A stretch of 64,000 nt of DNA, from positions 217,710-281,709 of the forward strand of contig MGGJ01000001.1 of assembly GCA_001792345.1 (NCBI GenBank), given 5' to 3'. The DNA comes from Candidatus Woesebacteria bacterium RIFCSPHIGHO2_01_FULL_39_32. GTDB taxonomy: Bacteria; Patescibacteriota; Microgenomatia; UBA8517. The notes beneath the pieces were generated by a model, which searched no databases, was not told where the DNA came from, and saw only the letters and a list, made by a program, of their open reading frames with translations. A program made the translations under genes and the position numbers. This document shows, piece after piece, positions 2,535 through 55,033 of this stretch. Numbering within the stretch: the stretch's first letter is position 1; each line of letters starts with the position of its first letter.

Positions 2535-4016
2535 TTGGTTAAATGGTTAATTAGGGGCGATAAAACTATTTTTTTTATTCTTTTACTTGGACTTATACTT
2601 AGACTTGTTGCAATTAATCAATCACTTTGGCTTGACGAAGCAATTGGAGCTATTGCGGCGAGAGACTTCACTTTTTCCGGAATCTTAACCGATTTTATAA
2701 AGGCGGACAATCATTCGCCTTTGTATTATTTAACGTTAAAGGCATGGACTAATATATTTGGATATTCGGAGGTATCAATTCGATTTCCATCAGTTATCTT
2801 TGGAATTCTGACTATTTATTTTGCTTACAGAATTGCCAAATTAATAATTCCGTCTGGAAAGGCCAGCTTTCCGATTATTACTTCACTTTTATTGAGTATG
2901 TCTTCGTTTCATATTTACTATTCACAAGAAGCACGGATGTATTCTATGGCAGCTTTTTTTGCAACAACTGCTTTCTATTATTTTTTCCAATTATTAAATA
3001 ACGAAGCCAGAAGGAAAGATTGGGTACTGTTTTCTGTATCGATTACAGCATTAGCATTTACTGATTACGTACCTGTTTTTCTTTTGCCTGTCTTTTGGAT
3101 TATCGTATTTAAAAAAAGAAAAGATATAAATTTTCGGAAACTTTTTCTTTTAGCCCACGCCCTTCTTGTCGTTTTGGGAATTTTGTGGCTGCCTACATTT
3201 ATAGTTCAAGCAGAAAGGGGAAATTGGTTACTTCAAACATGGCCTGCTTGGAAAAATGTAGCAGGTGGAGCAACATTGAAACAGTTGCTACTGGTTTGGA
3301 TGAAATTTGTTTTTGGAAGAATATCTCTTTCCAATAGATTACTTTACTATTCGTTGGTCGTTATGACGAGTATTCCTGTATTTCTATCTTTAATTAATTC
3401 ATGGAAAGATCGAAATAAAAACGTGGTTAGGGTTTGGTTATGGCTTATTATCCCGCTTTTATTAGGTTTTTTAGTAAGTTTTAATTTTCCCGCGTTTATC
3501 TATTTTAGATTTGTATATGTTGTTCCAGCATTTTACTTACTTATTTCATGGGGGATAGAAAAGATAAAAAACATCCGAGTTAAAAGGGTATTGTTTTTGG
3601 GGATTTTAACCTCAAATATTTTGAGTTGGTTCATCTATATTACAAATGTAAATCAACAGCGTGAGCAATGGAGGGAAGCAACGATGTTTGTGGAGAAAAA
3701 TGCGAAATCTGATGAAATAGTGATATTTGAATTTCCAGAACCTTTTGCTCCCTACCGGTGGTATTCCAAAAACTTAGTGCAGGTTAAGGGTATAACAAAT
3801 TCGATTTCGGTCGACCCAGAAAAAACCTCCGAGATTACTTCAAAAGCAATAGAAACTAAATCTGGCATTTATTATTTCGAATATTTGAGAGAGTTATCGG
3901 ATCCGAAGGATATTGTAAGAAAAACCTTGGTCGAAAAAGGCTTTATAAAAAAAGATGTTTATAATTTTCAGGGAGTCGGATTTATTGAATATTATGTTAA
4001 GGGTGAGTCACTTTAG
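2535..4016 (+). CDS. GT39/GT83-family polytopic membrane glycosyltransferase (PMT_2 / ArnT-like, lipid-linked sugar donor)
   Basis: Multi-TM protein with an LWLDEAIGA motif in the first loop, typical of ArnT/PMT-type dolichyl/undecaprenyl-phosphate-sugar transferases. Confidence 0.6.
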   Translation: MVKWLIRGDKTIFFILLLGLILRLVAINQSLWLDEAIGAIAARDFTFSGILTDFIKADNHSPLYYLTLKAWTNIFGYSEVSIRFPSVIFGILTIYFAYRIAKLIIPSGKASFPIITSLLLSMSSFHIYYSQEARMYSMAAFFATTAFYYFFQLLNNEARRKDWVLFSVSITALAFTDYVPVFLLPVFWIIVFKKRKDINFRKLFLLAHALLVVLGILWLPTFIVQAERGNWLLQTWPAWKNVAGGATLKQLLLVWMKFVFGRISLSNRLLYYSLVVMTSIPVFLSLINSWKDRNKNVVRVWLWLIIPLLLGFLVSFNFPAFIYFRFVYVVPAFYLLISWGIEKIKNIRVKRVLFLGILTSNILSWFIYITNVNQQREQWREATMFVEKNAKSDEIVIFEFPEPFAPYRWYSKNLVQVKGITNSISVDPEKTSEITSKAIETKSGIYYFEYLRELSDPKDIVRKTLVEKGFIKKDVYNFQGVGFIEYYVKGESL

Positions 4017-4044
4017 TACTTTAAAGTGCTAAAGTATTTAAGCT

Positions 4045-5403
4045 ATGTTGGGTATTAGTATTATTTTGTTTTTAATAATTATTACTCATATTTTTTTGTT
4101 AAGTAAGCTTGTATTCTTTCCTTATCCAGAGCTATTTATATACTCTTATTTAACAAAGATCGGTCTTGTACCCTACAAACAAATATTCGACCAGCATTTT
4201 CCGGGAATTATGTTTTTCCCAATAAACCTTACAACTTTGGGAATCGACACTGTTTTCGAAATGAGACTATTGCACTTTGCAATAATTTCTCTTACCCAAA
4301 TTCTTCTTTTTGTCGTAGTGAAGAAATTGTTTAACTCTAACCTCTTAGCCCTAGCTTCTAATATTTTATATTTAATTTGGCAGCCATTTTTTGAGGGATA
4401 TGTACTTTGGATAGACTCTTTCATCCCGCTATTTCTTCTGCCCGCGCTTTATTTTTTAGTAAGTAAAAAAAGCAATAAAAGTATATTACTTTCAGGCCTT
4501 TTTTTGGGAACTGCGCTCTTATTTAAGCAGGTCGCAGCACCGCTTATTTTCATGACTTTTTTATTTCTAATTCTTACAAATAAACCCTTGAAGAAAAATT
4601 TGTCCTTCTTGTTGGGTTTAGCAGTTCCAATTCTGATCTTGGTTCTCTTCGTTACCTATAAAAACATTTGGGAGGATTTTATATACTGGAGCGTAACTTT
4701 TAATCTAACAACTTTTGCAGAAATGGGAAGTAAATTACCGGACCTTTTCGGATTTATTAAAGTATTGCCTTTATTTGCAGTCAGCTTTGTTTTTCTAGCT
4801 TTAACCTACTTCAAGAAAAAATCTACTGAAATTCTAATGATTACGTTTTTTATCATAGGATCTTTGGTATTTTCATTTGCCCGTTTTGACTATATTCATT
4901 TGCAGCCTGCCGTCCCATTTGCCATTATTGGTATAGTTTTAGGATTGAAGGAGTTACAGAAAAAGAATATACATTATTATCTCGGTTTATACCTTCTATT
5001 TTCGATATTGTTTATAATTCCATTTTATAAAGCTAGCTTTGGAGATAAAGTTCTTTTCTTCGGAGATAATGAAGAAAAGATTAGCAATGCTGTTTTGAGA
5101 TATGTGAATTCGGGAAACAGTGTGTTTGCCTTTGGGACAACTCCACACCTTTATTATTTAACTAAAACACGTCCACCGGGAAACGTCTTTGTTTTTCAAT
5201 TTCCCTGGTTTATGGTAGAAGCCGAAGAAAAAATTTTACAAGGTATAATTACTGATCCCCCAGAAATTATTGTAAGAGATAAAAACGCAGAAGTAGAAAA
5301 TATGAATTTGGTCAAGTATATGCCTAAAATAAAAGCTCATATTGATCGGTATTATAAAGTTGTAGATAAGATTGATGGAACTGAAATAATGGTCAAAAAT
5401 TAA
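4045..5403 (+). CDS. Polytopic integral membrane protein, possibly another lipid-linked glycosyltransferase
   Basis: 452 aa with at least 10 hydrophobic segments, located inside the GT locus. No diagnostic motif recognised. Confidence 0.4.
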   Translation: MLGISIILFLIIITHIFLLSKLVFFPYPELFIYSYLTKIGLVPYKQIFDQHFPGIMFFPINLTTLGIDTVFEMRLLHFAIISLTQILLFVVVKKLFNSNLLALASNILYLIWQPFFEGYVLWIDSFIPLFLLPALYFLVSKKSNKSILLSGLFLGTALLFKQVAAPLIFMTFLFLILTNKPLKKNLSFLLGLAVPILILVLFVTYKNIWEDFIYWSVTFNLTTFAEMGSKLPDLFGFIKVLPLFAVSFVFLALTYFKKKSTEILMITFFIIGSLVFSFARFDYIHLQPAVPFAIIGIVLGLKELQKKNIHYYLGLYLLFSILFIIPFYKASFGDKVLFFGDNEEKISNAVLRYVNSGNSVFAFGTTPHLYYLTKTRPPGNVFVFQFPWFMVEAEEKILQGIITDPPEIIVRDKNAEVENMNLVKYMPKIKAHIDRYYKVVDKIDGTEIMVKN

Positions 5404-6524: not shown

Positions 6525-7142
6525 TTGTCAGACTTTCTTTTGTTAAAAGAAAGTCTGAAGATAAGTATGGCACACAACAATCAGGAAATTGAGTTAAAAC
6601 TTCCACTGACCAGAGAGCAGTTTGATAAAGTAAGCAAAAAACTCCAAAAGATTGCTAAATTTGTTAAATTTTGTCATCAGATAGATGACTATTTCACCCC
6701 GACTTACAAAAGTTTTCTGCTAGCAAAATACCCTTATGAGTGGTTAAGTATCAGAAAAAGGAATGGAAAAGTGGTGTTAAATTACAAGCATTGGTATCCC
6801 GAAAACGCTAAATATACAACTCATTGTGACGAGTATGATACAGAGGTCGGGGATGTTGAGCAGCTTGAGAAGATTCTGGCGGCTCTAAGTTTCAGAAATT
6901 TAGTAACGTTTGAGAAGAAAAGGAGCGTATTTTTATACCAAAATAGCCTTGAAATTGCTTTAGATGAGGTTAAAGAGCTAGGATTTTTTATTGAAGTCGA
7001 AACAATGAAAGACTTCGGAAGCGTAGAGGAAGCAAGACGTGAGATCATTAAATTTACTAAAACTTTAGATCTTTTAGGAACAAGGACTGTCCCGGGAGGT
7101 TACGCCGCTGCATTAATGAGACAAAAAGGATTAGTTAAATAA
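6525..7142 (+). CDS. CYTH-domain protein (class IV adenylyl cyclase / triphosphatase fold)
   Basis: N-terminal EIELKL motif and C-terminal acidic FFIEVE strand, characteristic of CYTH triphosphate tunnel proteins. Confidence 0.45.
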   Translation: MSDFLLLKESLKISMAHNNQEIELKLPLTREQFDKVSKKLQKIAKFVKFCHQIDDYFTPTYKSFLLAKYPYEWLSIRKRNGKVVLNYKHWYPENAKYTTHCDEYDTEVGDVEQLEKILAALSFRNLVTFEKKRSVFLYQNSLEIALDEVKELGFFIEVETMKDFGSVEEARREIIKFTKTLDLLGTRTVPGGYAAALMRQKGLVK

Positions 7143-10483: not shown

Positions 10484-11834
10484 TGGATTAATTAAATATA
10501 CCGTTGCAGCGATTCTTATTGGAGTACCTTTATACCCAAAATTTCCCTTATTCCGGATTTCAGGCACCTTTGTTGCCATTAGGATTGAAGATATTCTTTT
10601 GGCTTTTGCGGGATTTTTACTCCTGGCAATATTTGTTCGTAAATTAGATAAATATTGGAAGGATTCTATTACCAAAACCATTATGCTTTTTTTAATTGTT
10701 GGTTTTGTTTCATTAATATCAGCCATATATATTACTCATACTGTTGTACCCCATATTGGTTTATTGCATTGGGTCAGAAGAATTGAATATTTTATTCCTT
10801 TTTTCTTAGGCTTGGAGGCAATCGAGAGAGATAAGAAAAACCTAGCTTTCTTTTCAAAAATAATTGTAATAGTAGTCGCATTAGCCTTCATTTACGGGTT
10901 TGGACAGAAATATTTTGGATGGCCGATTATTATTACACAAAATCAGGAATACTCTAAGGGAATTGCTCTCCGCTACACTACTGGTAGCCATATTAACTCG
11001 ACATTTGCCGGGCATTACGACTTAGCTAGTTTCTTAGTTTTAATTTTGCCGATAGTTGTTTCATCATTTTTCTTACTCAAGGGCTTACGGACTAAGATAT
11101 TTCTGACAGCGGGTTTTTTTTCGGGCTTATGGCTTTTAGTTAATACTGCATCACGCATTTCTCTAGTTTCTTATCTTGTCGCAGTAGTATTAAGTTTATT
11201 CCTAATTAAAAGATATAAGGCAATACCATTAGTTTTAGTAGTAAGTGTTTTATTCATAGGATTTTCATCTAATTTAATATCACGGTATGGAAGAATTATC
11301 GAAGTAGTTAGAACTCAATCTCTTGAGTTTAACCTAATAAATTATCGAAGCTTAAACCGTTTAGTCTATGCCGCAGAAGATGAATTTGTATTAAAAAGAC
11401 AGATAGCAACTCCAACACCTACGCTGGTACCGGTCTTTGAGGATAGGTCTACTAATATAAGACTGAATGTTGAATGGCCCAGGGCTTTAAGAGCTTTTGC
11501 TAAAAATCCTTTCTTAGGTACGGGGTATTCGTCGATCACTTTAGCTACAGACAATGATTACTTACGAACCTTGGGAGAAGTTGGTGCTTTAGGATTTTTG
11601 GCATTTTTCTTAATTTTTGGAAAAATATCAGTTAGTTTGGTAAAAGTTCTTCCTTTTGATAAGCATTTTGAAGGAATAGAACTTGCTTTCATTGTGGGAG
11701 TGGTTGGGGCTATGCCGGGAATATTTCTTAACGCTTTCTTTATAGATGTTTTTGAAGCATCAAAATTTGCTATCTTCTTTTGGTTATTAATTGGGTTTAC
11801 CATATCTTTAACAAAATATGCAAAAAGTGAGTAA
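10395..11834 (+). CDS. O-antigen ligase / Wzy-like polytopic membrane protein
   Basis: About 10 TM segments with a large periplasmic loop, sitting in the glycan locus. The start is probably internal, near 10460. Confidence 0.45.
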   Translation: MELWVELLSLGYLKGRRQLCPMLKRLWLLDGLIKYTVAAILIGVPLYPKFPLFRISGTFVAIRIEDILLAFAGFLLLAIFVRKLDKYWKDSITKTIMLFLIVGFVSLISAIYITHTVVPHIGLLHWVRRIEYFIPFFLGLEAIERDKKNLAFFSKIIVIVVALAFIYGFGQKYFGWPIIITQNQEYSKGIALRYTTGSHINSTFAGHYDLASFLVLILPIVVSSFFLLKGLRTKIFLTAGFFSGLWLLVNTASRISLVSYLVAVVLSLFLIKRYKAIPLVLVVSVLFIGFSSNLISRYGRIIEVVRTQSLEFNLINYRSLNRLVYAAEDEFVLKRQIATPTPTLVPVFEDRSTNIRLNVEWPRALRAFAKNPFLGTGYSSITLATDNDYLRTLGEVGALGFLAFFLIFGKISVSLVKVLPFDKHFEGIELAFIVGVVGAMPGIFLNAFFIDVFEASKFAIFFWLLIGFTISLTKYAKSE

Positions 11835-13290
11835 GATATTTAAACAGATTTTTAACTATAAATATATCGAGTATATATTTTTATCTTTTGTCTTAATATT
11901 GGGCCTTTTATTAAGACTATATAAAATTAATAATCCCATTGCCGACTGGCATTCATGGAGACAGGCAGATACATCTTCCGTTACCAGAAGTTATGTGGAT
12001 AAAGGAATAAATCTTCTTTTTCCGCGCTATCATGATATTTCAACCACTCAGACAGGAAAATTTAATCCCGAAGGATATAGATTTGTCGAGTTTCCAATCT
12101 ATAACGTAGTTCATACTTTGTTGACAGAAAATTTTAACTTTTTAACACTTGAAGTGTGGGGAAGGCTTCTATCAGTTTTCTTTGCTTTAGTTACAACTGT
12201 ATTTATTTATTTATTGGGTAAGCGTTTTTTGGGAGTTTGGGGAGGTATATTAGCTTCCTTTTTTTACGTCGTATTGCCTTATAACATTTATTTTACAAGG
12301 GTAATTTTACCGGAACCGATGGCTGTAATGTTTGCAGTTGCAAGCCTTTGGGCATTTATAACTTATATTGATTCAAACAAAAATTGGAGACTATATTTTT
12401 CAGGTTTATTATTCGCATTGGCATTACTTGTCAAACCTTATGTAATCTTTTACAGCGTTCCAATGATCTATTTGTTATTGAATAAGTTCAAGATCAAAGA
12501 AATTTTTCGCAATGCAAAATTAATTATTCCCTTATTACTTTTCACGGACATTGTATTGGTTCCCTTAATTGCCTGGCGCGGCTGGATTTCAAATTACCCT
12601 GAAGGGATTCCACACTTTGGGTGGGTGTTTAACGGGGATGACATACGTTTTAAACCTTCATTCTGGAGTTGGATTTTTGGCGAACGACTTAGTTGGCTAA
12701 TTCTAGGGGGTTGGGGTTTGGTACCTTTTTCTTTTGGCTTAATGAAAAGACTAAAAAATTCTTACTTCACGCACTTTTTCCTTTTGGGAATGTTTTTTTA
12801 CGTTTCGGTAGTTGCAACTGCAAACGTTCGCCATGACTACTATCAAACGCTAGTAATTCCCGCAGTTTCACTAATATTGGCACAAGGTTGTATTATCTTG
12901 TGGGAATCAAGCCAGTTTAATAAGTTACTGTCAAGAGGTCTGCTGGTATTTTCGATTGGTTTAGCTATTAATAATGGATTAATCCAAATAAAAGAGTTTT
13001 ACAAAATTAATCATCCCGAAATTATTATCGCCGGCCAGTCGGTTGACCGTCTTACCCCTAAAAATGCCCTGGTTATTGCTCCATACAATGGTGACAGCGC
13101 ATTTTTGTATCAGACAAAAAGATGGGGTTGGCCATTCGTTGACAGACCCATTGAAGAGTTAATCGAAAACGGTGCAGATTACTATGTTTCTGTTAATTTT
13201 GATGCGCAAACAAATGAGTTTATCAATAAGTTCGAGACTGTTCAAAAAAAGGATCAATACTTAATTCTTAGCCTGCAAAAAAGAAAATAA
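11818..13290 (+). CDS. GT39/GT83-family membrane glycosyltransferase (PMT_2/ArnT-like)
   Basis: Polytopic N-terminal region with an early DWHSWRQAD loop motif and a C-terminal soluble domain, as in PMT-family enzymes. Confidence 0.55.
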   Translation: MQKVSKIFKQIFNYKYIEYIFLSFVLILGLLLRLYKINNPIADWHSWRQADTSSVTRSYVDKGINLLFPRYHDISTTQTGKFNPEGYRFVEFPIYNVVHTLLTENFNFLTLEVWGRLLSVFFALVTTVFIYLLGKRFLGVWGGILASFFYVVLPYNIYFTRVILPEPMAVMFAVASLWAFITYIDSNKNWRLYFSGLLFALALLVKPYVIFYSVPMIYLLLNKFKIKEIFRNAKLIIPLLLFTDIVLVPLIAWRGWISNYPEGIPHFGWVFNGDDIRFKPSFWSWIFGERLSWLILGGWGLVPFSFGLMKRLKNSYFTHFFLLGMFFYVSVVATANVRHDYYQTLVIPAVSLILAQGCIILWESSQFNKLLSRGLLVFSIGLAINNGLIQIKEFYKINHPEIIIAGQSVDRLTPKNALVIAPYNGDSAFLYQTKRWGWPFVDRPIEELIENGADYYVSVNFDAQTNEFINKFETVQKKDQYLILSLQKRK

Positions 13291-14485: not shown

Positions 14486-15393
14486 TGAAAAAACCAAAAC
14501 TTTCTATTGTAATTCTGAGTTATAACACAGTAGATCTACTGCGAGAATGTTTACTTTCATTAAAGAAAGTAAGAGGAGAGGTAGGCTTTGAAGTAATAGT
14601 TTCCGATAATGCCTCAACCGACGGATCTCCTGAGATGGTTGAAGATGAATTTCCGTGGGTTAAAAAGATTATAAAAACTAGGATAAATATTGGTTTTGCG
14701 GCTGGGAATAACAGGGCAAGAGAGTATGTTAATGGGGAATTTGTTCTATTTTTAAACCCGGATACAATTATTCATAAAGACACTTTAAAGAAATGTAGAC
14801 AATATTTAGATAACCACAAGGATGTGGGTGCATTAACCTGTAAAATTGTTCTTCCCACCGGTCAATTAGATAAAGATGCAAGGAGATCCTTCATAACTCC
14901 GTGGATAGGTTTGACTCATATTTATTTGAAACTAGACAGAATATTTCCAAAATCCAAACTTTTTGCCAAGTATTGGTATGGTTATGTATCTCCCAATACC
15001 GAACACGAGGTTGATGCTTTACAGGGTGCCTTTTTCTTCACAAGAAGAGCCGTTTTAGATCAAGTCGGTTGGTTTGATGAAGATTATTTTTTAAACGCGG
15101 AAGATATTGATCTTTCATGGAAAATAAAAGAGAAAGGTTGGAAGATATTTTATTACCCAAACGTTTCAATAACACACGTTAAAGGGGCCGCTAAAGGTAA
15201 GACTAAAAGAACTAAACAGAATGTTCCACTGAAAGAAAAGTTAAAATATCGCCTTGCCGAAGTAGATGCAATGGAAGTATTTGTTAAAAAAAGACTATGG
15301 AGAAATTATCCTTTAGCTTTAAATCTCTTAGTTTTGACCGGAATTAAGTTATTAAGGTTTATAAGAGCTACGAAAGTTATTTTATTAGGATAA
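14485..15393 (+). CDS. Glycosyltransferase family 2
   Basis: LSIVILSYNTVDLLRECLLSL ... SDNASTDGS. Confidence 0.75.
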   Translation: MKKPKLSIVILSYNTVDLLRECLLSLKKVRGEVGFEVIVSDNASTDGSPEMVEDEFPWVKKIIKTRINIGFAAGNNRAREYVNGEFVLFLNPDTIIHKDTLKKCRQYLDNHKDVGALTCKIVLPTGQLDKDARRSFITPWIGLTHIYLKLDRIFPKSKLFAKYWYGYVSPNTEHEVDALQGAFFFTRRAVLDQVGWFDEDYFLNAEDIDLSWKIKEKGWKIFYYPNVSITHVKGAAKGKTKRTKQNVPLKEKLKYRLAEVDAMEVFVKKRLWRNYPLALNLLVLTGIKLLRFIRATKVILLG

Positions 15394-16535
15394 TGAAAAT
15401 ATTAATTGATGCAAGGATGTATGGACTTGAGCACTCAGGGATTGGTAGGTATTTGATTAATTTGATCGACAACCTTAAAGAGATCGATAGAGAGAATAGC
15501 TATATTATTTTATTAAGGAAAAAGTACTTCGATGAATTAAGGTTTCCGGAAAATTGGATGAAGATTATAGTAGACCTTCGCCACTATACATTTGCAGAAC
15601 AGTTTAAATTGCCGGGAATTATAAATAAAGAAAAACCGGATTTAGTCCACTTTCCCCACTTTAATATTCCATTACAATTTAAAGGTCCGTTTGTGGTAAC
15701 CATCCACGATACGACGATGCATCATCAAGGAACCAATGCCACTACGCTTCCATTATACAAATATATATTCAAGCGGATTCCATATAAATTAGTTTTCAAG
15801 AAAGCAGTTATCAATTCAAAAAAAATTATTACTCCCAGTGAAACAGTCAAAAAAGAGGTTCTAGATTATTACAAAGTTGATCCGGAAAAGATCGCGGTTG
15901 CCTATGAAGGGTTCAATGCCGACTATATTGTTGAGAAAGCAAGCAGCAGAGAGTTGGAAACGTTAACCAAATTTAAAGCTGCTAATGCGGATTATTTCTT
16001 TTATGTCGGTAATGCTTATCCCCATAAAAATTTGGACAACGTCATTCGAGGTATAGTGGATATAAATAAAAATAAAAATGGTTCAGTGAGGTTTCTTATC
16101 GCGGGATCAAGAGATATTTTTATGGAAAGACTTCAAAAGTTAATCGATAGACTTGAAGCCAATGATTATGTGGAACTTTTAGGATTTGTTAGGGACGACG
16201 AGCTTTGGGTGTTGTACAAATATAGTTTGGGATTTGTGTATCCATCTCTTTCTGAGGGGTTTGGTCTGCAAGGTTTAGAAGCTATTTCATCCGGTACGAT
16301 TCTTCTTGCGTCAAATATTCCAGTTTTTCAAGAAATTTACGGAAGTCACGCATTTTATTTTAACCCGCAAGATGTAAGCTCAATTTCTGGAACAATGTAT
16401 TCTGTTTTGAAAATGGAAAGAGAAGATAAATATAAGTATTTGGAAATTGCGCAAGAATATATCAAAAAATACTCCTGGCAAAAAATGGCCAAAGAAACTT
16501 TAGAAGTTTACAGGCAAGTTTTAAAAGAAAAGTAA
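15393..16535 (+). CDS. Glycosyltransferase family 1 (GT4)
   Basis: YPSLSEGFGLQGLEAISSGTILLAS motif. Confidence 0.7.
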   Translation: MKILIDARMYGLEHSGIGRYLINLIDNLKEIDRENSYIILLRKKYFDELRFPENWMKIIVDLRHYTFAEQFKLPGIINKEKPDLVHFPHFNIPLQFKGPFVVTIHDTTMHHQGTNATTLPLYKYIFKRIPYKLVFKKAVINSKKIITPSETVKKEVLDYYKVDPEKIAVAYEGFNADYIVEKASSRELETLTKFKAANADYFFYVGNAYPHKNLDNVIRGIVDINKNKNGSVRFLIAGSRDIFMERLQKLIDRLEANDYVELLGFVRDDELWVLYKYSLGFVYPSLSEGFGLQGLEAISSGTILLASNIPVFQEIYGSHAFYFNPQDVSSISGTMYSVLKMEREDKYKYLEIAQEYIKKYSWQKMAKETLEVYRQVLKEK

Positions 16536-16598: not shown

Positions 16599-17117
16599 TT
16601 GGACAATTTGTTTATGAGAAGTGAAATTGAGTGGATAAAGCTTGTTACGAGAAAAAACTCGTTAGCATTCATGCATGTTGTGGCTAAACAAAAGCCTTAT
16701 GTAAAAGCTGTCATAGATTTTGATCTCAATTATTATTGGTATAACGGGATTACCTATGAAGCTTGCTATTCAAAAAAAGAAGTTTACGGTCTGGGGTCTA
16801 AAATTTCTGATGAAATTAAAAAAAATCTTAATTTTGCTTCACAAAATGCAGAATTATGCAGAGTTCTTTGCGATAAATTAATATTACAATCAGAAGCGAT
16901 CGGAAAAGTTAATTTGAGATTAATTAGCAACAGGCAACTATATAAAATTCTCAATGACTTTCTTGTACCTTTCTATGAACTTGTTCCGTTCCTTCTTGTT
17001 CCGCATTCAGTAGAACGGCAGATTTTGTCTGAGATTGAAGAATTAGTTTCCCAAAAATTAGGCGGCGACGAAGAAAAACAAAAAAAAATATATAGAAGTA
17101 TTTTCTACGCCAATTGA
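16599..17117 (+). CDS. N-terminal part of a PEP-utilizing-domain protein, probably frameshifted relative to 17146-18069
   Basis: The ORF ends in an A9 homopolymer region (17080-17088). Removing one A joins its frame to the downstream ORF, giving a ~479-aa product of the same size as paralog 19295-20752. Confidence 0.4.
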   Translation: MDNLFMRSEIEWIKLVTRKNSLAFMHVVAKQKPYVKAVIDFDLNYYWYNGITYEACYSKKEVYGLGSKISDEIKKNLNFASQNAELCRVLCDKLILQSEAIGKVNLRLISNRQLYKILNDFLVPFYELVPFLLVPHSVERQILSEIEELVSQKLGGDEEKQKKIYRSIFYAN

Positions 17118-17145
17118 TGAAGATATTGACGAATCAGAGTCGGCC

Positions 17146-18069
17146 TTGAAAATTGCAACATATGTTAAGAAGGTTGGTTGGAATATGCAAGCGAATCAAG
17201 AATTGAGAAGGCACACTCAAAAATTCTGCTGGATTTCGATGTGGGGTGTTACAGATAAACCACTGACTAGTAAGTATTTTAGGGATGAAATTGATACCTT
17301 AGTGGATAATATAGAAAATCCCCTTCTGGAAATTGAGAAACTAAAGAAAGAGCATTCTCGCCGAAAGGAAATATTTGATAAAACATTGAAAAAACTTAAT
17401 GCTTCGGAACATTTGGAAGGACTTGCTCGGATTCTTCAATCTTATGTTTTTTTGCGCACTTATAGAAAGAATGCTTATTCGAAAGCCAACTATTTACATC
17501 TACCCCTGCTTTATGAAACAGGCAGAAGAATGGGTTTAAATAATAGGGAAGCAAAATATGTAACCTATGACGAGATGCTCGATTTCTTGGATAAAGGTAA
17601 AGGAGTTTTCAAACCTTTGATTAAAGAGAGAATTAAAGGGTGGGCAACGCTTCTTTGGGATGGGGAAACATTTGTATTTTCTGGTAAAAGCGAAGTCAAA
17701 AGGGCCATTAAAAAATACAATATTTTTGTTGAAGAAGCCTCGGAAGGTAACCAAGTAAAAGGTAGGGTGGCAAGTACGGGAAAGGTCAGGGGTAAAGTTA
17801 GGGTTGTCAGAAGTCTTAAAGGCATTGGAAAAGTTGAAAAGGGAGATATTTTAGTGGCCACAATGACAACGCCTGATTACATGCTCGCTATTCATAAATG
17901 CGCCGGGATTGTTACAGACGAGGGAGGAGTGACGTGCCATGCTGCCATTATTTCGCGTGAATTTAATATTCCTTGCATTGTAGGGACTGGAAACGCAACT
18001 CAGGTTTTGGAAGATGGAGATTTAGTAGAAGTTGATGCGGAGAAAGGAATTGTCAGAAAACTTCATTGA
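17146..18069 (+). CDS. PEP-utilizing enzyme mobile (phosphohistidine swivel) domain protein
   Basis: C-terminal DEGGVTCHAAIISREFNIPCIVGTGNATQ...DGDLVEVDAEKGIV matches the PPDK/PpsA/EI central His-domain consensus. TTG start. Confidence 0.7.
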   Translation: MKIATYVKKVGWNMQANQELRRHTQKFCWISMWGVTDKPLTSKYFRDEIDTLVDNIENPLLEIEKLKKEHSRRKEIFDKTLKKLNASEHLEGLARILQSYVFLRTYRKNAYSKANYLHLPLLYETGRRMGLNNREAKYVTYDEMLDFLDKGKGVFKPLIKERIKGWATLLWDGETFVFSGKSEVKRAIKKYNIFVEEASEGNQVKGRVASTGKVRGKVRVVRSLKGIGKVEKGDILVATMTTPDYMLAIHKCAGIVTDEGGVTCHAAIISREFNIPCIVGTGNATQVLEDGDLVEVDAEKGIVRKLH

Positions 18070-18101
18070 CAGTAAATTTTCCACAGACTATTATCTAGTT
18101 A

Positions 18102-18353
18102 ATGGATAAAAAGAAAAAGAAAGATAAACAATATAAATTCTTTGCGGATGCTTTTCATGAAGTTGTAGTTCCACTTCTTGAGAATATGGCTACGAAAGAC
18201 GATGTTAAGGATATGGCTACCAAAGATGACATCGATAAAATTAATAGTAGATTGGTTAAAATTGATGATAAGCTAGAAAGATATGGAAATAGACCTGATG
18301 GTCATGAAAAAAGAATAACAAAGTTGGAAAATAAAGTTGCTATAGCTTCATAA
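18102..18353 (+). CDS. Small coiled-coil protein, member of a paralogous family also present in the 57-62 kb island
   Basis: Internal duplication MATKDDVKD/MATKDDIDK. The C-terminal KINSRL..KI...GHEKRITKLENKV is shared with 59959-60264 and 61056-61385. Confidence 0.35.
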   Translation: MDKKKKKDKQYKFFADAFHEVVVPLLENMATKDDVKDMATKDDIDKINSRLVKIDDKLERYGNRPDGHEKRITKLENKVAIAS

Positions 18354-18396
18354 AAAAACTCAATTAATATTAGGAATTTTTGATAAAATCAGTACA

Positions 18397-19293
18397 GTGG
18401 AACTTAAGCGGGTATTGGTTGAATTAGAAAAGCTGTTGCAAAACTGGAGAATAAATACATCAGGTTGGATTCTTGTATCTCAGTATGCTTATCGACTTCT
18501 AGGGTACGATGTTAAACTTCGTAAAGGACACTTGAATGTATTAGTTAGAAAAAATAAAATACCGTGGAAAATAAAAGAAGGAATTGAAATTCATCCCCCC
18601 AGGAAGACTAAATATAGGGCAGAATTTGAAAAATTCATAGATAAAACGGGGTTTGATTTTGACATAAACCTTGCCACAGATAAAGAATTTACAGCTAAAG
18701 AAGGCTTCTACGTTTTGTACAAACTTCCGAATTCTACAGAAATTAGAGTTCAAAAACCTTCTGGTGCAATTAAAGAATTTGAAAAATTACTTTCCTTAAG
18801 TACCAAAGAAGGATTAGGGACTGAAAGATTGAATAAAGATATTTTCTACATTAAAGATATGATTCTGGCTTTGTCAAAGAAGGGAGAAGAAGATACAACC
18901 AAGCTTTTCCAAAGACTTCTCAAAAAATATCTAACTGTTAAGAAGAAGCATATTACTGTAAAACCCACTGATACCGATAGTATCGCAGGAATAGTAGCAA
19001 GTAAAGGAAAAGCTAATGGAAGGATCATTGTTGTTTACGATATTAAAGATGCAAAACTTATTAAAGACGGTGACATTCTAGTCACAAAAATGACTTCACC
19101 AATCCTAACATTGCTGCTTCCGAAAATTTCTGCAATTGTTACGGATAAGGGCGGAATGCTTAGCCACGCTGCAATTTTAGCTCGCGAGATTGGTGTTCCC
19201 TGCATCGTCGGCACACAAGTCGCAACTAAGGTGCTTAAAGACGGAGATTTAGTCGAAGTTGATGCATATAGGGGAATTGTAAGGAAAATATAA
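18397..19293 (+). CDS. PEP-utilizing enzyme mobile domain protein (paralog 2)
   Basis: C-terminal DKGGMLSHAAILAREIGVPCIVGTQVATKVLKDGDLVEVDAYRGIV. Confidence 0.7.
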   Translation: MELKRVLVELEKLLQNWRINTSGWILVSQYAYRLLGYDVKLRKGHLNVLVRKNKIPWKIKEGIEIHPPRKTKYRAEFEKFIDKTGFDFDINLATDKEFTAKEGFYVLYKLPNSTEIRVQKPSGAIKEFEKLLSLSTKEGLGTERLNKDIFYIKDMILALSKKGEEDTTKLFQRLLKKYLTVKKKHITVKPTDTDSIAGIVASKGKANGRIIVVYDIKDAKLIKDGDILVTKMTSPILTLLLPKISAIVTDKGGMLSHAAILAREIGVPCIVGTQVATKVLKDGDLVEVDAYRGIVRKI

Positions 19294-19294
19294 A

Positions 19295-20752
19295 ATGCTC
19301 GATCCAAATAGAAAGTTATTCCGTTGGGGACCAATAAGTGCCTGCCCTTTTTTTATGTCCTTCACGATTGGAGCTGCTTTTACGCCATTAAAAAAACTTC
19401 TTGGTGTTTGCTATCCCGAATCAGTGATTATTTTTAAAGACAAAAAGGTTACGTGGCTAATGGATGCCGAAGATTTTTCAAAATCTAGCCAAGACTTTGT
19501 ACAAAGAAACATTTTTAACAACAAAAGGAAAAAAATGTATTCGAGCGAATGGAACAGAAAAACAAGTTTACTTCAAGGAGAATTCAATTTGTTGAATGAA
19601 ATAAATTTTACGTCTTTAACACAAGAAGATCTAAACCAAAAATTTGAACATTTTTCCGAAATATATTTTTTGTGGTGGACTTTAACGATTTCGGTCGAAT
19701 TAATTACAACATCAATTGAACCACTTTTAGGGAAGGGATTAAAAGATTACTACAAAGATGAACAAGTGAAAGAGTTTAATAAAGATTTTGCTATTCTTAC
19801 TTCTCCTCTTGCTTTAACATTTTACAGACAAGAACAAAAAGACTTACTTGAAATCCTGGCACTTCCTAATAAGAAATGGGGTAGTGCACTTAAAGCTCAT
19901 CAACAAAATTATTTCTGGATGTACAACAGTTATCTTAAAGCAAAGAAATTAAATGTGAATTATTTTCGAAAAGAAGCAGAAAAATTTGCGAAAACCAAGT
20001 GGAAACCACTGTTTGAGGAGATAAATAATTATTCCGAAAATACTAAATTCCAAAAGTCTCAGATAATAAAAAGACTGTATCTGAAAAGGGAAGTTCGGGA
20101 TTTAATTTCTTTAGTTGAGAAATTCGCTCAGTTTCAAGATCAAAGAAAAGCTTTAAATTTTAAATCTGATCATTATCTTCAAATTTTTGTAGACGAATAC
20201 GCGCGAAGATTAAAAATAAAAAGCGACGATCTTAAAATGTTACTTTTCAAGGAGTTGACTGCTTTCTCTGACGAGCTGAAAAAGAATTTAATTAAAAAGC
20301 GGAAGGAGTGTTTTGTTTTGGTTTGCAAAAATACAGGAATAAAACATTTCGTTGGAAGTAAAGCGTTATTTTTGCATAAAAGATTCGGCAAAGTTAGAAA
20401 AATTAAAGAGAGCATGATTCATGGTAGAGTTGCTTCAGTTGGTAAAGAATATCATTTTAGAGGTACTGCAAAAGTTGTATTGACAATAAAAGAAATTGGT
20501 AAAGTCAAAAAGGGTGACGTGTTGGTTACAACGATGACGAGTCCTGATTTCGTGATTGGAATGAAGAAGGCGATTGCGATAATTACTGATACCGGCGGAA
20601 TACTAAGCCACGCTGCAATAGTTTCGAGGGAACTGAAAAAACCATGCATTGTTGGGACAGAAGTAGCTACTAAAGTTATTCATGATGGTGATATCGTCGA
20701 AATTCACTCAGGAAGAGGAACAGTTAGAATTGTTAAACACGAGGGAAATTAA
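19295..20752 (+). CDS. PEP-utilizing enzyme mobile domain protein (paralog 3, 485 aa)
   Basis: C-terminal DTGGILSHAAIVSRELKKPCIVGTEVATKVIHDGDIVEIHSGRGTV. The N-terminal ~380 aa have no recognisable ATP-grasp motifs. Confidence 0.7.
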   Translation: MLDPNRKLFRWGPISACPFFMSFTIGAAFTPLKKLLGVCYPESVIIFKDKKVTWLMDAEDFSKSSQDFVQRNIFNNKRKKMYSSEWNRKTSLLQGEFNLLNEINFTSLTQEDLNQKFEHFSEIYFLWWTLTISVELITTSIEPLLGKGLKDYYKDEQVKEFNKDFAILTSPLALTFYRQEQKDLLEILALPNKKWGSALKAHQQNYFWMYNSYLKAKKLNVNYFRKEAEKFAKTKWKPLFEEINNYSENTKFQKSQIIKRLYLKREVRDLISLVEKFAQFQDQRKALNFKSDHYLQIFVDEYARRLKIKSDDLKMLLFKELTAFSDELKKNLIKKRKECFVLVCKNTGIKHFVGSKALFLHKRFGKVRKIKESMIHGRVASVGKEYHFRGTAKVVLTIKEIGKVKKGDVLVTTMTSPDFVIGMKKAIAIITDTGGILSHAAIVSRELKKPCIVGTEVATKVIHDGDIVEIHSGRGTVRIVKHEGN

Positions 20753-21937
20753 ATGAAAACGGCAATTGTTTATGATCGGGTGAATAAATGGGGAGGGGCA
20801 GAGAGGGTGCTTTTGGCGCTTCATGAACTTTTTCCTGAAGCACCGCTTTACACTTCAGTTTACGACAAGAAGAAAGCACCGTGGGCAAAAGTTTTTCCTA
20901 AAGTTAAAACGACCTTTTTACAAAATTTGCCGATATTGAATAACTATCATGAACTGTTGGGTTGGCTTACACCCATTGCTTATGAAACATTTAATTTTGA
21001 CAAATACGATCTTGTTATATCTGTTACTTCCGAAGCAGCAAAAGGAATTATTACGAAACCGAAAACTTTGCATTTATGTTATTGTTTAACGCCAACCCGA
21101 TATTTGTGGAGTGGATATGAAGAATATTTGAATAATCCACCCAAAAATCTCAGCTGGATACCTTTATATAAAATATTGTCCCAACCCTTTCTTAAGTATA
21201 CAAAAAAATGGGATATGGTTGCAGCTCAGAGACCAGACGTTATGATAGCAATTTCTACAGAAGTTAAAAAGAGAATTAAAAAATATTATAAAAGGGAATC
21301 GGAACTTGTATATCCTCCAATTGAACCCCCAAAATTTAGAAAGAAAAACCAAAAACATAAAAAACCCGATAATGCAGGCTGTTCAATCTCGGAGATTGAT
21401 TACGTTCAAACATCAGGATCTAAAAATCTAATAAAGACCGATTACTATTTGGTTGTTTCGAGGTTGGTACCTTACAAGAGAGTTGATTTAGCGATTGAAT
21501 CTTTCAATAAACTTGGTTTGCCCTTGGTTATTATTGGGACAGGAAGTGAAGAGAAGGGGTTGAAAAGAGTTGCTAAAGAAAATATTCACTTTGAAGGATT
21601 TGTAAAAGAAGAAGATTTAGCAAATTACTATCTGAATGCGAAAGCTCTTATTTACCCCCAAGAAGAAGATTTTGGGATTACTGCAGTTGAATCTCAAGCA
21701 GCAGGAACGCCCGTTATCGCATACAAAAAAGGCGGAGCGCTTGATACTGTTATTGACAGCAAAACAGGGATATTTTTTGAGGAACAAAGAAAAGAAAGTT
21801 TAATTGAAGCGATTCAAAGATTTGAATCGCTGGATTTTTCAAAAGAAGATTTGGTTAAGAATGCAAAAAAATTTTCAAAAGACAGGTTTAAAAAAGAGTT
21901 TGGAAGGTTGGTCGATGAATTATTATTAGCCAAATAA
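20753..21937 (+). CDS. Glycosyltransferase family 1 (GT4)
   Basis: EDFGITAVESQAAGTPVIAYKKGGALDTV motif. Confidence 0.75.
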   Translation: MKTAIVYDRVNKWGGAERVLLALHELFPEAPLYTSVYDKKKAPWAKVFPKVKTTFLQNLPILNNYHELLGWLTPIAYETFNFDKYDLVISVTSEAAKGIITKPKTLHLCYCLTPTRYLWSGYEEYLNNPPKNLSWIPLYKILSQPFLKYTKKWDMVAAQRPDVMIAISTEVKKRIKKYYKRESELVYPPIEPPKFRKKNQKHKKPDNAGCSISEIDYVQTSGSKNLIKTDYYLVVSRLVPYKRVDLAIESFNKLGLPLVIIGTGSEEKGLKRVAKENIHFEGFVKEEDLANYYLNAKALIYPQEEDFGITAVESQAAGTPVIAYKKGGALDTVIDSKTGIFFEEQRKESLIEAIQRFESLDFSKEDLVKNAKKFSKDRFKKEFGRLVDELLLAK

Positions 21938-43728: not shown

Positions 43729-44445
43729 ATGTCAGATAAAAACATAGTTCTTTTACATGGATGGGGAGCGGCAACTTATAATCTTGAACCTTTGAAAAGT
43801 GAGTTTGAAAAATTAGGTTGGCAAGTTTTACTTCCCCAACTAGCAGGTTTTGAAAAACCTGCTCCTAAAGAAGTGTGGGGAATAAAGGAATATTCCAACT
43901 ATGTGCGTGAAGAAGCAGTAAATGTTTTTGGAAAAGATAAGTTTTTTGTTTTCGGCCATTCATTTGGCGGGGGTGTTGCTATTAAATTGGCATCAAGTAA
44001 TTCAAAAAATCTCTCTGGAGTAATATTATGCGCTACAAGAGGTATATCTCGTGGAAAGTCGGTTAAAAGACTTTTATTTACCACTTTGGCTAAAACAGGG
44101 AAATTATTTTTAGTGACACCTCAGTTGGCTCAAAAGTTTAGAAAATTACTTTATAAAGCTGCTCGTGAGCATGATTATGAAAAAACACAGGGAATTATGA
44201 GAGAGGTATTCAAAAAAGTTGTTTCCGAAGATCTAAAGCCATCGTTACATAATATTAAAGTTCCCACTCTCATTTTGTGGGGGGAAGATGATAAAATGAC
44301 GCCGATAAAAGATGCGAAATATATAAAATCGGTTCTTTCCAAAAGTAAACTTGTTACTTATAAAGATCAGGGACATAAACTTCCGTACGAAAAACCAAAA
44401 GTGCTAGCTAAAGAAATTGAATTATGGTCGAAACAATTACATTAG
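43729..44445 (+). CDS. Alpha/beta-fold hydrolase
   Basis: Nucleophile elbow GHSFGG; Asp and His candidates near the C-terminus. Confidence 0.6.
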   Translation: MSDKNIVLLHGWGAATYNLEPLKSEFEKLGWQVLLPQLAGFEKPAPKEVWGIKEYSNYVREEAVNVFGKDKFFVFGHSFGGGVAIKLASSNSKNLSGVILCATRGISRGKSVKRLLFTTLAKTGKLFLVTPQLAQKFRKLLYKAAREHDYEKTQGIMREVFKKVVSEDLKPSLHNIKVPTLILWGEDDKMTPIKDAKYIKSVLSKSKLVTYKDQGHKLPYEKPKVLAKEIELWSKQLH

Positions 44446-46034
44446 TTATAATTCTTTTTTGGTTGCCACAAGCAATTTACCAAGTTCTTAATTGGACTTA
44501 CTGGTGGCAGGTCAAAGAATATAGATTCGATAGGTTTTTTGTCTTTCTGAAAACAAAGGACGGGAAGGAAAAATTAGACTTAATTCCAATCTTTCTTAAG
44601 CTCTCCATTTTAATAATAGCGATATTTAAACCTCTATTTATATGGCTAGGTTTATTTTTATTAATATTAGTGGACCTCAAACTTTTCCGAGAAACAGCGC
44701 AAAAAAGTATCAGAAAACCCATTGTAACCGAGCGGGTAAAGAAAATTCTGGCAACTTGTCTCTTGGGGATAATCCTCACACTACTAGTTTATTGGTATTT
44801 TAACAATATTGCATTCAGTTTATTTATTGGAGAAGTATTGTTGCTCTTAAGTCCCTTAGCTGGAATGCTTTGGACAATTCCGATTGTGAATAAAATTAAA
44901 ATAGAGGAAATCGAAAAGGCTCAAAAAGTTCTTAAAAAAATTAAACCAACAGTAATTGGAATTACCGGAAGCTACGGTAAAACTACCACTAAAGAATTTG
45001 TAGCACACTTTCTGTCTCAAAAATATGAAACTGCAAGAACAGAAGGAAGTGAAAATACTGAATTTGGAATTGCTAGGAAAACCTATAAAAATGTAGCAAA
45101 AGGAACCAAATTTTTTGTTGTTGAAATGGGTGCTTATAGAGTGGGAGAAATAAAACGCCTTGCCGATATTGTTCATCCACAATTAGGAATAATAACCGGA
45201 ATAGAAGAGCAACATTTGTCTTTGTTTGGTAGCCTGGAAAATATTAAAAAGGCAAAGTTTGAGTTAATAGAAAGCTTACCCAGAAGCGGCGCCGCAATAT
45301 TCAATTACTCCAATGAATACAGTCAAGAACTTGTTAAATGGGTGCGTCAACTAAGAACAAATCTGAAAGTTTTGACATACTATGTAAGAGATAAGATAGA
45401 GCAAGGTAAGTCAAATGCTGATATTGAATCCGAAGTTTTATCGGTCGATGCCGAAAAAGTGCGATTCAAAGTAGATTATAAAGGAGAATCAAAAATTCTT
45501 TCAGCTACCTTACCGGGCTTACATTTTTTGGAGAACTTAACATGCGCCATTTTAGTAGCAAGATATTTTGGAGTTCCTTGGAGTAATATAAAAAAGGCCT
45601 GCTTAAATATTGCAATGCCGGAAAATACAATGGATGTTTATAAAACAAAAGCCGGTAGTACGATTATTGACGACACTCATAATGCTACACCTTTAGCTTT
45701 TGAATCAGCATTAAAATATCTTTCCTACTTTCGAGGAAAAAGAAAATTTGTCATTACTGGCGGTATTATCGAATTGGGTAATAAGACTGACTCTGCTCAT
45801 TATGAAATAGGCAAAATCATGGCACAAACGATAGATAAAGTAATTCTTACAAATGACGATTATTACTCAAGTGTTAAGTCTGGGCTTGGTAATGAATCTG
45901 GCAAACTTATTTCAGGATCAGAAAATGAGTTGCAATCAGAAATTGGAAAAATAATTAATTTAAATGATGCTGTTGTCCTCCTCGAGGGTCGTTTACCGTC
46001 TAGAATTATGGAATTAATACAAAGTTCAAAATGA
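44424..46034 (+). CDS. murF: UDP-MurNAc-tripeptide--D-Ala-D-Ala ligase MurF with an atypical hydrophobic N-terminal extension
   Basis: GITGSYGKTTTKE P-loop at residue ~178 of the longest ORF, preceded by 4-5 predicted TM helices instead of the usual soluble N-domain. Confidence 0.7.
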   Translation: MVETITLVIILFWLPQAIYQVLNWTYWWQVKEYRFDRFFVFLKTKDGKEKLDLIPIFLKLSILIIAIFKPLFIWLGLFLLILVDLKLFRETAQKSIRKPIVTERVKKILATCLLGIILTLLVYWYFNNIAFSLFIGEVLLLLSPLAGMLWTIPIVNKIKIEEIEKAQKVLKKIKPTVIGITGSYGKTTTKEFVAHFLSQKYETARTEGSENTEFGIARKTYKNVAKGTKFFVVEMGAYRVGEIKRLADIVHPQLGIITGIEEQHLSLFGSLENIKKAKFELIESLPRSGAAIFNYSNEYSQELVKWVRQLRTNLKVLTYYVRDKIEQGKSNADIESEVLSVDAEKVRFKVDYKGESKILSATLPGLHFLENLTCAILVARYFGVPWSNIKKACLNIAMPENTMDVYKTKAGSTIIDDTHNATPLAFESALKYLSYFRGKRKFVITGGIIELGNKTDSAHYEIGKIMAQTIDKVILTNDDYYSSVKSGLGNESGKLISGSENELQSEIGKIINLNDAVVLLEGRLPSRIMELIQSSK

Positions 46035-54792: not shown

Positions 54793-54984
54793 TTAACTCT
54801 TCCTGTTTTTTGTATCACCATTACTTAGTTGGTTTTCGAGTATTTTTTCTATTTCAGAAACATTTGTTTCTTTGAGCATTTCTCGTAGTTCTCTATCCAT
54901 TTTCTTGTTCACGCGACCCGAGTGTATTTGGCTTGCCAGAAGATGTAGAGCTTTCGTTAATTCTTTTTCGGAAATAAGTATCAT
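54793..54984 (-). CDS. Hypothetical small protein
   Basis: 63-aa ORF only. Confidence 0.25.
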   Translation of the reverse strand: MILISEKELTKALHLLASQIHSGRVNKKMDRELREMLKETNVSEIEKILENQLSNGDTKNRKS

Positions 54985-55033
54985 CTGTAAAAGGAGTTCA
55001 CTCCTTAGGCAATGTCGGCAGACTTCTCCATAA

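Follow-up and report, generated by a model that had tools for sequence, protein, structure and literature searches.

The question raised by the locus described here is what three proteins ending in a phosphohistidine swivel domain are doing amid a row of glycosyltransferase genes, when neither an ATP-grasp domain nor a phosphoenolpyruvate (PEP)/pyruvate TIM barrel is present in any of them. The locus occupies positions 16599–20752, on the plus strand, of a 64,000-nucleotide stretch from Candidatus Woesebacteria bacterium RIFCSPHIGHO2_01_FULL_39_32 (contig MGGJ01000001.1, positions 217,710 to 281,709; the whole stretch is referred to below as the window). Five open reading frames (ORFs) were counted in it, namely A1, A2, an 83-aa ORF, B and C, of which A1 and A2 are judged to be the two parts of one gene, A. 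B and C were identical to OGM25409.1 (UniProt A0A1F8BLV3) and OGM25410.1 (A0A1F8BLH8), respectively, of Candidatus Woesebacteria from the Rifle aquifer. The answer that we consider rather probable is that A, B and C encode subunits that carry the phosphate and bind the acceptor ("H-type" subunits), that these belong to a dikinase made of several components and akin to rifampin phosphotransferase (RPH), and that they are not split PEP synthases.

The products of A2, B and C were examined with the profile of the PEP-utilizers mobile domain (PF00391, gathering cut-off 23.1 bits). It was found that all three matched far above the cut-off, with 98.2 bits for A2 (E = 2e-28), 91.5 bits for B (E = 3e-26) and 77.9 bits for C (E = 4e-22). 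The loop of the catalytic histidine, GGxx[SC]HAA, was present in each of them as GGVTCHAA, GGMLSHAA and GGILSHAA, respectively, and the histidine codons were located at 17938–17940 (A2, His265), 19165–19167 (B, His257) and 20609–20611 (C, His439). Sequence searches of the PDB returned PEP synthase, RPH, pyruvate kinase, Enzyme I and PPDK, all matched through the swivel domain only. Neither PPDK_N (PF01326) nor PEP-utilizers_C was found by Pfam content in A, B, C or any called gene of the window, and an ATP-grasp hidden Markov model run over all window ORFs of at least 50 aa gave no match. An earlier note, made from the sequence alone, had described three consecutive genes whose products end in this mobile domain and lack both the TIM barrel and any obvious ATP-grasp motif. 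The domain assignment survived the profile search and the absence of both partner domains was confirmed, so that the core observation is real and far above chance; the gene count had to be changed to five ORFs, with the first gene split in two and the 83-aa ORF standing before B. The situation that the note had named as fatal to its view was not encountered, as the N-domains were not PPDK_N and no PEP-utilizers_C gene adjoined them.

C (19295–20752, 485 aa) was composed of a mostly helical N-domain (19295–20404), predicted to bind an acceptor, and the swivel domain (20405–20752). Its family comprised 41 orthologues of ~484 aa, with 40–50% identity over the N-domain and one named member from Gottesmanbacteria. 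The full-length alignment contained 56 invariant columns; His439 was invariant, and the invariant residues of the N-domain included W11, G12, P13, T175-R178, H202, W208, R284, K285, N288, F289, E320 and R336. When the N-domain alone was compared as a profile with Pfam and the PDB, no sequence match was obtained. An AlphaFold2 model of C built from the family alignment (pLDDT 92, pTM 0.91) gave the structures 5fbu, 5fbt and 5hv1 of RPH-Lm as top Foldseek matches (E ~1e-12, TM 0.51–0.58 on the query), with 470–570 aligned columns at 14–16% identity, and RPH-Lm structures were the only ones that matched most of the C chain. The profile of the C family aligned residues 308–480 to RPH 698–866, a segment that takes in the invariant E320 and R336. 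Because the model matched RPH-Lm and the profile aligned to RPH 698–866, the reading of C as a predicted acceptor domain of the RPH rifampin-binding type followed by a swivel domain, without the ATP-grasp, is supported, and the same would apply to A by homology. R284 was invariant in 40 C-type sequences, occurred also in window A and in an intact A orthologue of another locus (L011), was recognised by eye in the fusion protein P0072 described below, and sits ~24 residues before the segment that aligns to RPH 698. The RPH-like layout proposed in the earlier note therefore held for C, through its Foldseek match to RPH-Lm, and for A by homology, but not for B, whose structure matches in the PDB were limited to the swivel domain.

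For A, the two ORFs A1 (16614–17117, 167 aa, or 172 aa if extended to the TTG at 16599; the first third of the gene, no Pfam match) and A2 (17146–18069, 307 aa, containing the rest of the acceptor-binding domain and the swivel domain) lie in different frames. The frame of A2 is open from 17062 and overlaps A1 across a run of nine A residues (A9, 17080–17088), which is the site of a +1 frameshift; the stop codon of A1 is produced by this frameshift. Removal of one A from the run gave a 489-aa reading frame, of which residues 5–489 aligned as a single high-scoring segment pair (E = 1e-57) to the intact 482-aa orthologue encoded in a syntenic Woesebacteria locus (L011:6563-8011), and the corrected junction regained the conserved (S/T)(S/T)P segment. 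Before correction, A1 matched residues 1–152 of this orthologue (E = 2e-5) and A2 its residues 184–478 (34% identity), the overall identity between window A and the orthologue being 29%. By the evidence of these sequences, A1 and A2 are one gene of ~489 aa split by a +1 frameshift. The A9 tract was identical in five independent assemblies (L001, L002, L003, L005 and L006), which implies a property of the population and makes it unlikely that the homopolymer was misassembled. Recoding of UGA as a sense codon was also considered and is not needed, as the frames differ and one A of the A9 run explains the split. A Shine-Dalgarno-like AAGAAGG precedes an ATG at 17185 within A2, and naturally short relatives of 265–344 aa exist, so a product of A2 alone is possible. 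A may be either decaying or rescued by transcriptional slippage or internal initiation, and it looks like a gene being lost. In another locus (L019:11562-12198), a decayed A-type gene was observed as a 104-aa fragment with the RxxxF/DY motif region, continuing in another frame as a 133-aa ORF with the swivel domain only.

The comparison of A with C changed the picture of the N-terminal regions. The full length of A2 was 32% identical to C residues 192–478, and the intact A orthologue was 28% identical to C residues 3–478 (E = 1e-41). A and C can thus be described as homologous end to end and of one architecture, and it is only the N-domain of B that differs. The statement in the earlier note that the N-terminal regions of the three proteins differ from each other was accordingly not borne out for A against C; it applied to B alone, whose N-domain appeared unrelated by hhalign.

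B (18397–19293, 298 aa) consists of this N-terminal domain, here termed Bn (18397–18960), and a swivel domain (18970–19293; PF00391, and PpsA 8a8e with E = 8e-26). In the model of B (pLDDT 90), the ~185 residues of Bn folded into an alpha/beta core and, after it, a helical hairpin. The family of B contained 19–20 orthologues of conserved length, 53–72% identical, with 52 invariant columns; H257 was invariant, and the invariant residues of Bn included R42, H45, N47, P56, W57, E61, E64, D87, D89, K101 and Q119. The Bn profile gave no match against Pfam or against the PDB, and fold searches with the whole B model returned matches of the swivel domain only. The possibilities that Bn is a diverged lobe of an ATP-grasp or a piece of the C N-domain were examined with hhalign and set aside, as no relation to either was seen. 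An exhaustive profile search recovered only 111 clusters with Bn among 1.84 billion representatives, in the form of proteins of ~300 aa with Bn plus swivel, proteins of ~185 aa with Bn alone, and a few fusions. We regard Bn, on these comparisons, as a novel, previously undescribed domain. Its pattern WILVSQYAYRLLG...GHLNVLV...FDFDIN may resemble hG[GS]...DxD...D/E, the motif that pol-beta-type nucleotidyltransferases carry on a beta-alpha-beta core, with DxD changed to HxN; written as WILV..YAY.LLG...GH.N.LV...FDFD it shows the same presumed nucleotidyltransferase likeness, and the Pfam and PDB profiles gave no match.

Evidence that the swivel subunits work with an ATP-grasp came from their relatives. 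Three metagenomic fusion proteins were found to have modules in the order B then C, as in the window. The longest, P0072 (900 aa), contains a PPDK_N ATP-grasp (E = 8e-59), Bn (E = 2e-39) and a C-type module that ends in a swivel domain, the C-type part being 27% identical to C residues 8–479 (E = 3e-36); it is encoded by a genuine gene, which lies on a contig of 69 kb. P0071 has the same module order in a truncated sequence, and in P0137 (779 aa) a whole B precedes a C-type module. Across the three, Bn was matched with E values from 1e-39 to 2e-11 and the C-type module at 27–29% identity over nearly its full length. P0072 and P0071 differ from the window genes in the added N-terminal ATP-grasp and in having a single swivel domain, whereas P0137 keeps both swivels. 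With the ATP-grasp of P0072 as query, 4250 relatives were obtained at E ≤ 1e-10; among the best 120 of these, nearly all were stand-alone PPDK_N proteins of 206–345 aa, and most of the named ones were from Patescibacteria (Nomura-, Davies-, Falkow- and Saccharibacteria). One of the relatives, P0215, is a stand-alone ATP-grasp of 247 aa whose operon (L101/L102) has the order 428-aa swivel protein, HD protein, 477-aa A/C-type protein and ATP-grasp. The A/C-type protein was 31% identical to A (E = 8e-52), and its gene overlaps the start of the ATP-grasp gene by one base. The fusions together with such operons of A/C-type and ATP-grasp genes imply that all the modules belong to one dikinase system. 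The earlier note had offered, as an alternative to phosphotransferases, phosphorelay carriers with partner domains encoded elsewhere. The partners do appear in the fusions and operons of relatives; the suggestion is no true alternative, being the known two-component form of the same enzyme.

The architectures around the ATP-grasp were counted in a sample of 80 metagenomic loci. RPH-like fusions accounted for 32 and PpsA-like proteins for 19; one locus (L024) encoded an ATP-grasp with three swivel modules in 1755 aa and another (L069) a permuted order. The grasp was stand-alone and classifiable in 16 loci, and in the remaining 11 the grasp ORF ran off the contig end and was unclassifiable. A separate swivel gene was present in the locus in 11 of the 16 classifiable stand-alone cases, in 9 of them within 200 bp. 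In one locus (L029:3137-10891), four tandem swivel paralogues of 498, 265, 487 and 344 aa were observed, which have near-identical swivel C-termini and N-domains of varying length; 1.7 kb downstream of them there is a PPDK_N gene of 313 aa that stands alone, and the context is not glycan-related (exonuclease, PycTM-like protein, ABC transporter and YdjC). The 1755-aa ORF (L024:9980-15244) combines one ATP-grasp with three swivels, at least two of which are preceded by a C-type acceptor domain. These and similar loci suggest that the array in the window is an instance of a recurrent pattern in which one ATP-grasp serves several acceptor-swivel units. In a further locus (L039), the 10 kb to each side of the stand-alone grasp contained no swivel gene, so that unlinked arrangements do occur.

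Enzymes of this make-up have been characterised. HpeHI, CreHI and the phenylphosphate synthase PpsAB are two-component small-molecule dikinases in which the ATP-grasp is a separate protein, HpeH, CreH and PpsA being the subunits with the substrate-binding and swivel domains (PMC12167813); RPH has also been described (PMC4844700), and its two-component homologues are biochemically established (PMC12167813, PMC4844700). A and C have the same make-up as HpeH, CreH and PpsA, that is, an RPH-type acceptor domain, then a C-terminal swivel, and no ATP-grasp in the chain, and a separate ATP-grasp subunit, which those enzymes require, is proposed for A and C as well. Ser or Cys directly precedes the catalytic His in both sets of proteins, B included. 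A and C have ~485 aa against ~640 aa (71 kDa) in HpeH, and their N-domain belongs to no detectable sequence family. The related ATP-grasp proteins are also shorter, at ~250 aa compared with ~360 aa in the HpeHI type. The partner gene is adjacent in the HpeHI type, whereas the window genes have no adjacent ATP-grasp, although the relatives in L101/L102 do. The known HpeHI-type enzymes have phenolic substrates, and their genes belong to catabolic operons in Actinobacteria and Proteobacteria and not to glycan loci or to CPR (Candidate Phyla Radiation) bacteria. RPH-Lm (5FBS, 5FBT, 5FBU, 5HV1), the best structural match of C in its rifampin-binding and swivel domains and with the same predicted swivel mechanism, carries the ATP-grasp in the same chain, in contrast to A, B and C. 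The swivel domain of PEP synthase, PPDK and PTS Enzyme I is homologous, with 30–50% identity around the His; the window proteins are without the ATP-grasp, the PEP/pyruvate TIM barrel and the HPr-binding subdomain of these enzymes, and where they match Enzyme I, they do so through the swivel domain alone.

By homology to RPH, HpeHI and PpsAB and from the biochemistry of these enzymes, the following steps may be envisaged for A, B and C. A separate ATP-grasp subunit of ~250 aa, encoded outside the window, would bind ATP. The C-terminal swivel of a given subunit would dock on it, and its histidine (His265 of A, His257 of B or His439 of C) would be phosphorylated with release of AMP and Pi. The swivel would then return to its own N-terminal domain and pass the phosphate to the acceptor bound there. 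In A and C, the acceptor would be held by the RPH-type helical domain, with the invariant Arg (R284 in C) in the role of RPH Arg666; in B, the acceptor site would be on Bn instead.

The surroundings of the block bear on what this acceptor could be. The slot of B is bordered on the left by a GT4 glycosyltransferase gene (15393–16535, plus strand; Pfam Glyco_transf_4 and Glycos_transf_1) and on the right by a GT1-family glycosyltransferase gene (20753–21937, plus strand; Pfam Glycos_transf_1). Further upstream of the block there are GT2, GT4, PMT_2, Wzy_C, CYTH and hexapeptide-transferase genes, and downstream GT1, ManC-type NTP_transferase, Bac_transf, DUF4012 and RecO genes, the ManC gene being two genes downstream of the block. 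In L011, L013, L019 and L020, the GT4 orthologue was found immediately upstream of B or of A plus B, and the GT1 orthologue downstream of B and its variable companions. These companions are the split A, the 83-aa ORF and C in the window, an intact A and a NUDIX gene in L011, none in L013 (where B stands alone), a truncated and frameshifted A-type remnant with a NUDIX gene in L019, and NUDIX, membrane-protein and peptidase genes in L020; an A-type gene is absent from L013 and L020. A scan of GTDB with Bn yielded three genomes, two Rifle Woesebacteria and one metagenome-assembled genome labelled Gammaproteobacteria, in which the locus was syntenic. Counting these three, L013 and the window, B occupies the slot between GT4 and GT1 in five distinct genomes with a strongly syntenic locus. 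C orthologues in other CPR were solitary and lay in unrelated neighbourhoods. Since the slot of B is fixed while its companions vary and C orthologues occur elsewhere, B is the locus-specific gene, and for it the glycan context is meaningful; C gives the impression of a widespread family found here by chance. The description of the block in the earlier note as embedded in a glycosyltransferase array stood in so far as glycosyltransferase genes flank both sides, but only B is syntenically fixed, A and C are not. L020 (CAZVJU010000004.1) is titled 'uncultured Gammaproteobacteria bacterium', yet its locus is fully syntenic with Woesebacteria, and the label is probably wrong or the bin contaminated.

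A NUDIX gene was seen to follow B or the A remnant at L011:8899-9456, L019:12195-12752 and L020:10903-11358; a MazG-like gene (L016:170-478) precedes a stand-alone Bn, a form whose contigs were too short to show much context, and an HD-domain gene (L101:7993-8568) lies between two swivel genes. Recurrent neighbours of the nucleotide-pyrophosphohydrolase type may hint at a nucleotide-linked substrate. Together with the ManC gene, they make a sugar or nucleotide-sugar acceptor for B a reasonable guess. As B is the member bound to the glycan locus, a sugar, a nucleotide-sugar or a lipid-linked glycan intermediate is its most plausible acceptor, though this is only a guess. Plant GWD (alpha-glucan, water dikinase) and PWD are swivel-His dikinases that phosphorylate a glycan, and they provide the analogy for an action of B on a sugar polymer. 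In GWD, one chain combines carbohydrate-binding modules with an ATP-grasp at the C-terminus; no carbohydrate-binding module was detected here, and GWD is not known to be homologous to Bn, so the likeness is one of analogy only. A bolder version of our proposal, which we put forward as speculation, is that B is a bacterial functional counterpart of GWD, with Bn as a new acceptor fold for an intermediate of the Woesebacteria surface polymer, be it a sugar, a nucleotide-sugar or a polyprenyl-linked compound, and that one external ATP-grasp charges A, B and C as interchangeable acceptor subunits. If true, a minimal CPR genome would possess a kinase system of the type 'one charger, many heads'.

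Several observations weigh against the assignment of A, B and C to an RPH-related dikinase. There is no ATP-grasp gene in the 64-kb window, and none turned up in the 10-kb surroundings of the B- or C-type genes of the 7 other distinct loci examined. The families of the A/C type and the B type are known from sequences and models alone. In sequence, the C N-domain matches RPH in its last ~60 residues only, and its R284 is no more than a presumed counterpart of Arg666 from the catalytic Arg666-Glu667 pair of the RPH acceptor domain. Two swivel domains are present per B plus C pair in P0137 and in the window, and P0072 needs only one, a difference for which our simple scheme does not account. In the fusions, Bn stands between the ATP-grasp and the C-type module, and it could be a docking or regulatory domain and not an acceptor site.

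The strongest competing explanation keeps the enzymology and makes the location incidental: A and C, and perhaps B, would act as RPH-like kinases on small molecules (xenobiotics, antibiotics or others), would lie by chance, in a variable island, inside the glycan locus and would have no part in glycan synthesis. This is a real, though clearly lesser, possibility. It would account for the solitary C orthologues in unrelated neighbourhoods and for the content between B and GT1, which differs per genome (C, NUDIX, membrane protein, peptidase or A remnant); analogous arrays (L029, L101) lie outside glycan loci, and the characterised relatives have small molecules such as rifampin and phenolics as substrates (PMC4844700, PMC12167813). 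The occurrence of B in the identical slot between glycosyltransferase genes in five genomes, at 53–72% identity, is hard to reconcile with random insertion. We find it improbable that the proteins are phospho-carriers or regulators without a dedicated ATP-grasp, with the histidine charged by another donor, for example a full-length PpsA/PPDK or PEP, or with the swivel serving as a purely regulatory module of the kind of the extra C-terminal swivel-like domain in Geobacillus and Staphylococcus pyruvate kinase. For such a role speak the absence of an ATP-grasp near any B-type or Woesebacteria A-/C-type gene in the loci examined, the presence of the pyruvate kinases 2e28 and 3t05 among the swivel-domain matches, and the report that HpeH by itself can move phosphate between a phosphorylated product and a substrate (PMC12167813). 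P0072 and P0071, however, place Bn and a C-type module in one chain with an ATP-grasp, A/C-type genes elsewhere are translationally coupled to stand-alone ATP-grasp genes, and the many invariant polar residues of the N-domains are as expected for catalytic sites.

Still less probable, in our judgement, is that the block is decaying DNA without function, left over from a dikinase operon that was once complete. In every assembly A carries the frameshift, the A-type remnant of L019 is both truncated and frameshifted, A-type genes are missing from L013 and L020, and window A is only 29% identical to the A of L011 compared with 53–72% among B orthologues. B and C, on the other hand, are intact, C having 41 full-length orthologues with 56 invariant columns and the B family a conserved length with 52 invariant columns, and decay therefore fits A at most. 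That the genes form an ordinary PEP synthase or pyruvate phosphate dikinase in split form, for which it can be said that the best NCBIfam and PDB sequence matches were to PEP synthase, is very unlikely indeed: those matches span the swivel and linker only, and the N-domains are RPH-like (C and A) or novel (B). This reading was rejected by domain content, PPDK_N and the PEP-utilizers_C TIM barrel being absent both from the proteins and from the window as a whole.

The kind of enzyme proposed for A, B and C is already known; the novelty lies in the compact set of subunits in CPR, in the Bn domain and in the constant position that B takes within a glycan locus. A literature search found no paper on such proteins in CPR, and two-component RPH relatives have been recognised only recently and so far for phenolic catabolism only. 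In CPR, the swivel chemistry would be split into mix-and-match genes encoding an ATP-grasp of ~250 aa, acceptor subunits of ~485 aa and a Bn of ~185 aa, with several acceptor subunits possible per ATP-grasp subunit, the subunits being genomically unlinked in some cases and one of them (B) fixed inside a cell-surface glycan locus. This would give a testable function to thousands of hypothetical proteins of Patescibacteria annotated as 'PEP/pyruvate-binding domain' or 'PEP-utilising mobile domain', and it cautions that, when the metabolism of CPR is reconstructed, such proteins should not be annotated as PEP synthase or PPDK. A possible modification of the surface glycans of CPR by phosphate is indicated as well.

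The remaining ORF of the block (18102–18353, 83 aa, plus strand), situated between A and B, is rich in Lys and Asp and gave no family match above threshold. No counterpart beside B was present in the gene tables of L011–L013, nor was there an obvious equivalent among the ORFs beside B in L019 and L020, where a comparison with ORFs of at least 90 aa gave no match. The product is probably a coiled coil and probably stands outside the dikinase system. An anti-phage defence function of the block was also considered and dropped, as PADLOC gave no meaningful match.

Other features of the window were noted. A CYTH (triphosphate tunnel metalloenzyme) gene lies at 6525–7142 inside the glycosyltransferase array, and at the same place in L019. 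Three PMT_2 genes (GT-C, polyprenyl-phosphate-sugar-dependent) and Wzy_C are found at 2535–5403 and 11818–13290, and there are also Bac_transf and a 665-aa DUF4012 gene; together these genes suggest a lipid-linked, externally assembled surface glycan. The dcw/mur cluster of cell-wall genes at 32510–54792 is complete, extending from MraZ to FtsZ, and contains an additional Mur-ligase-like gene (44424–46034), a DegT aminotransferase gene (46031–47278) and a FemAB-family gene (47266–48288). The cumulative GC skew peaks at ~54000–56000, where the gene orientation flips from plus to minus, and beyond this point small unannotated minus-strand ORFs, NucS and a PD-(D/E)XK gene were observed.

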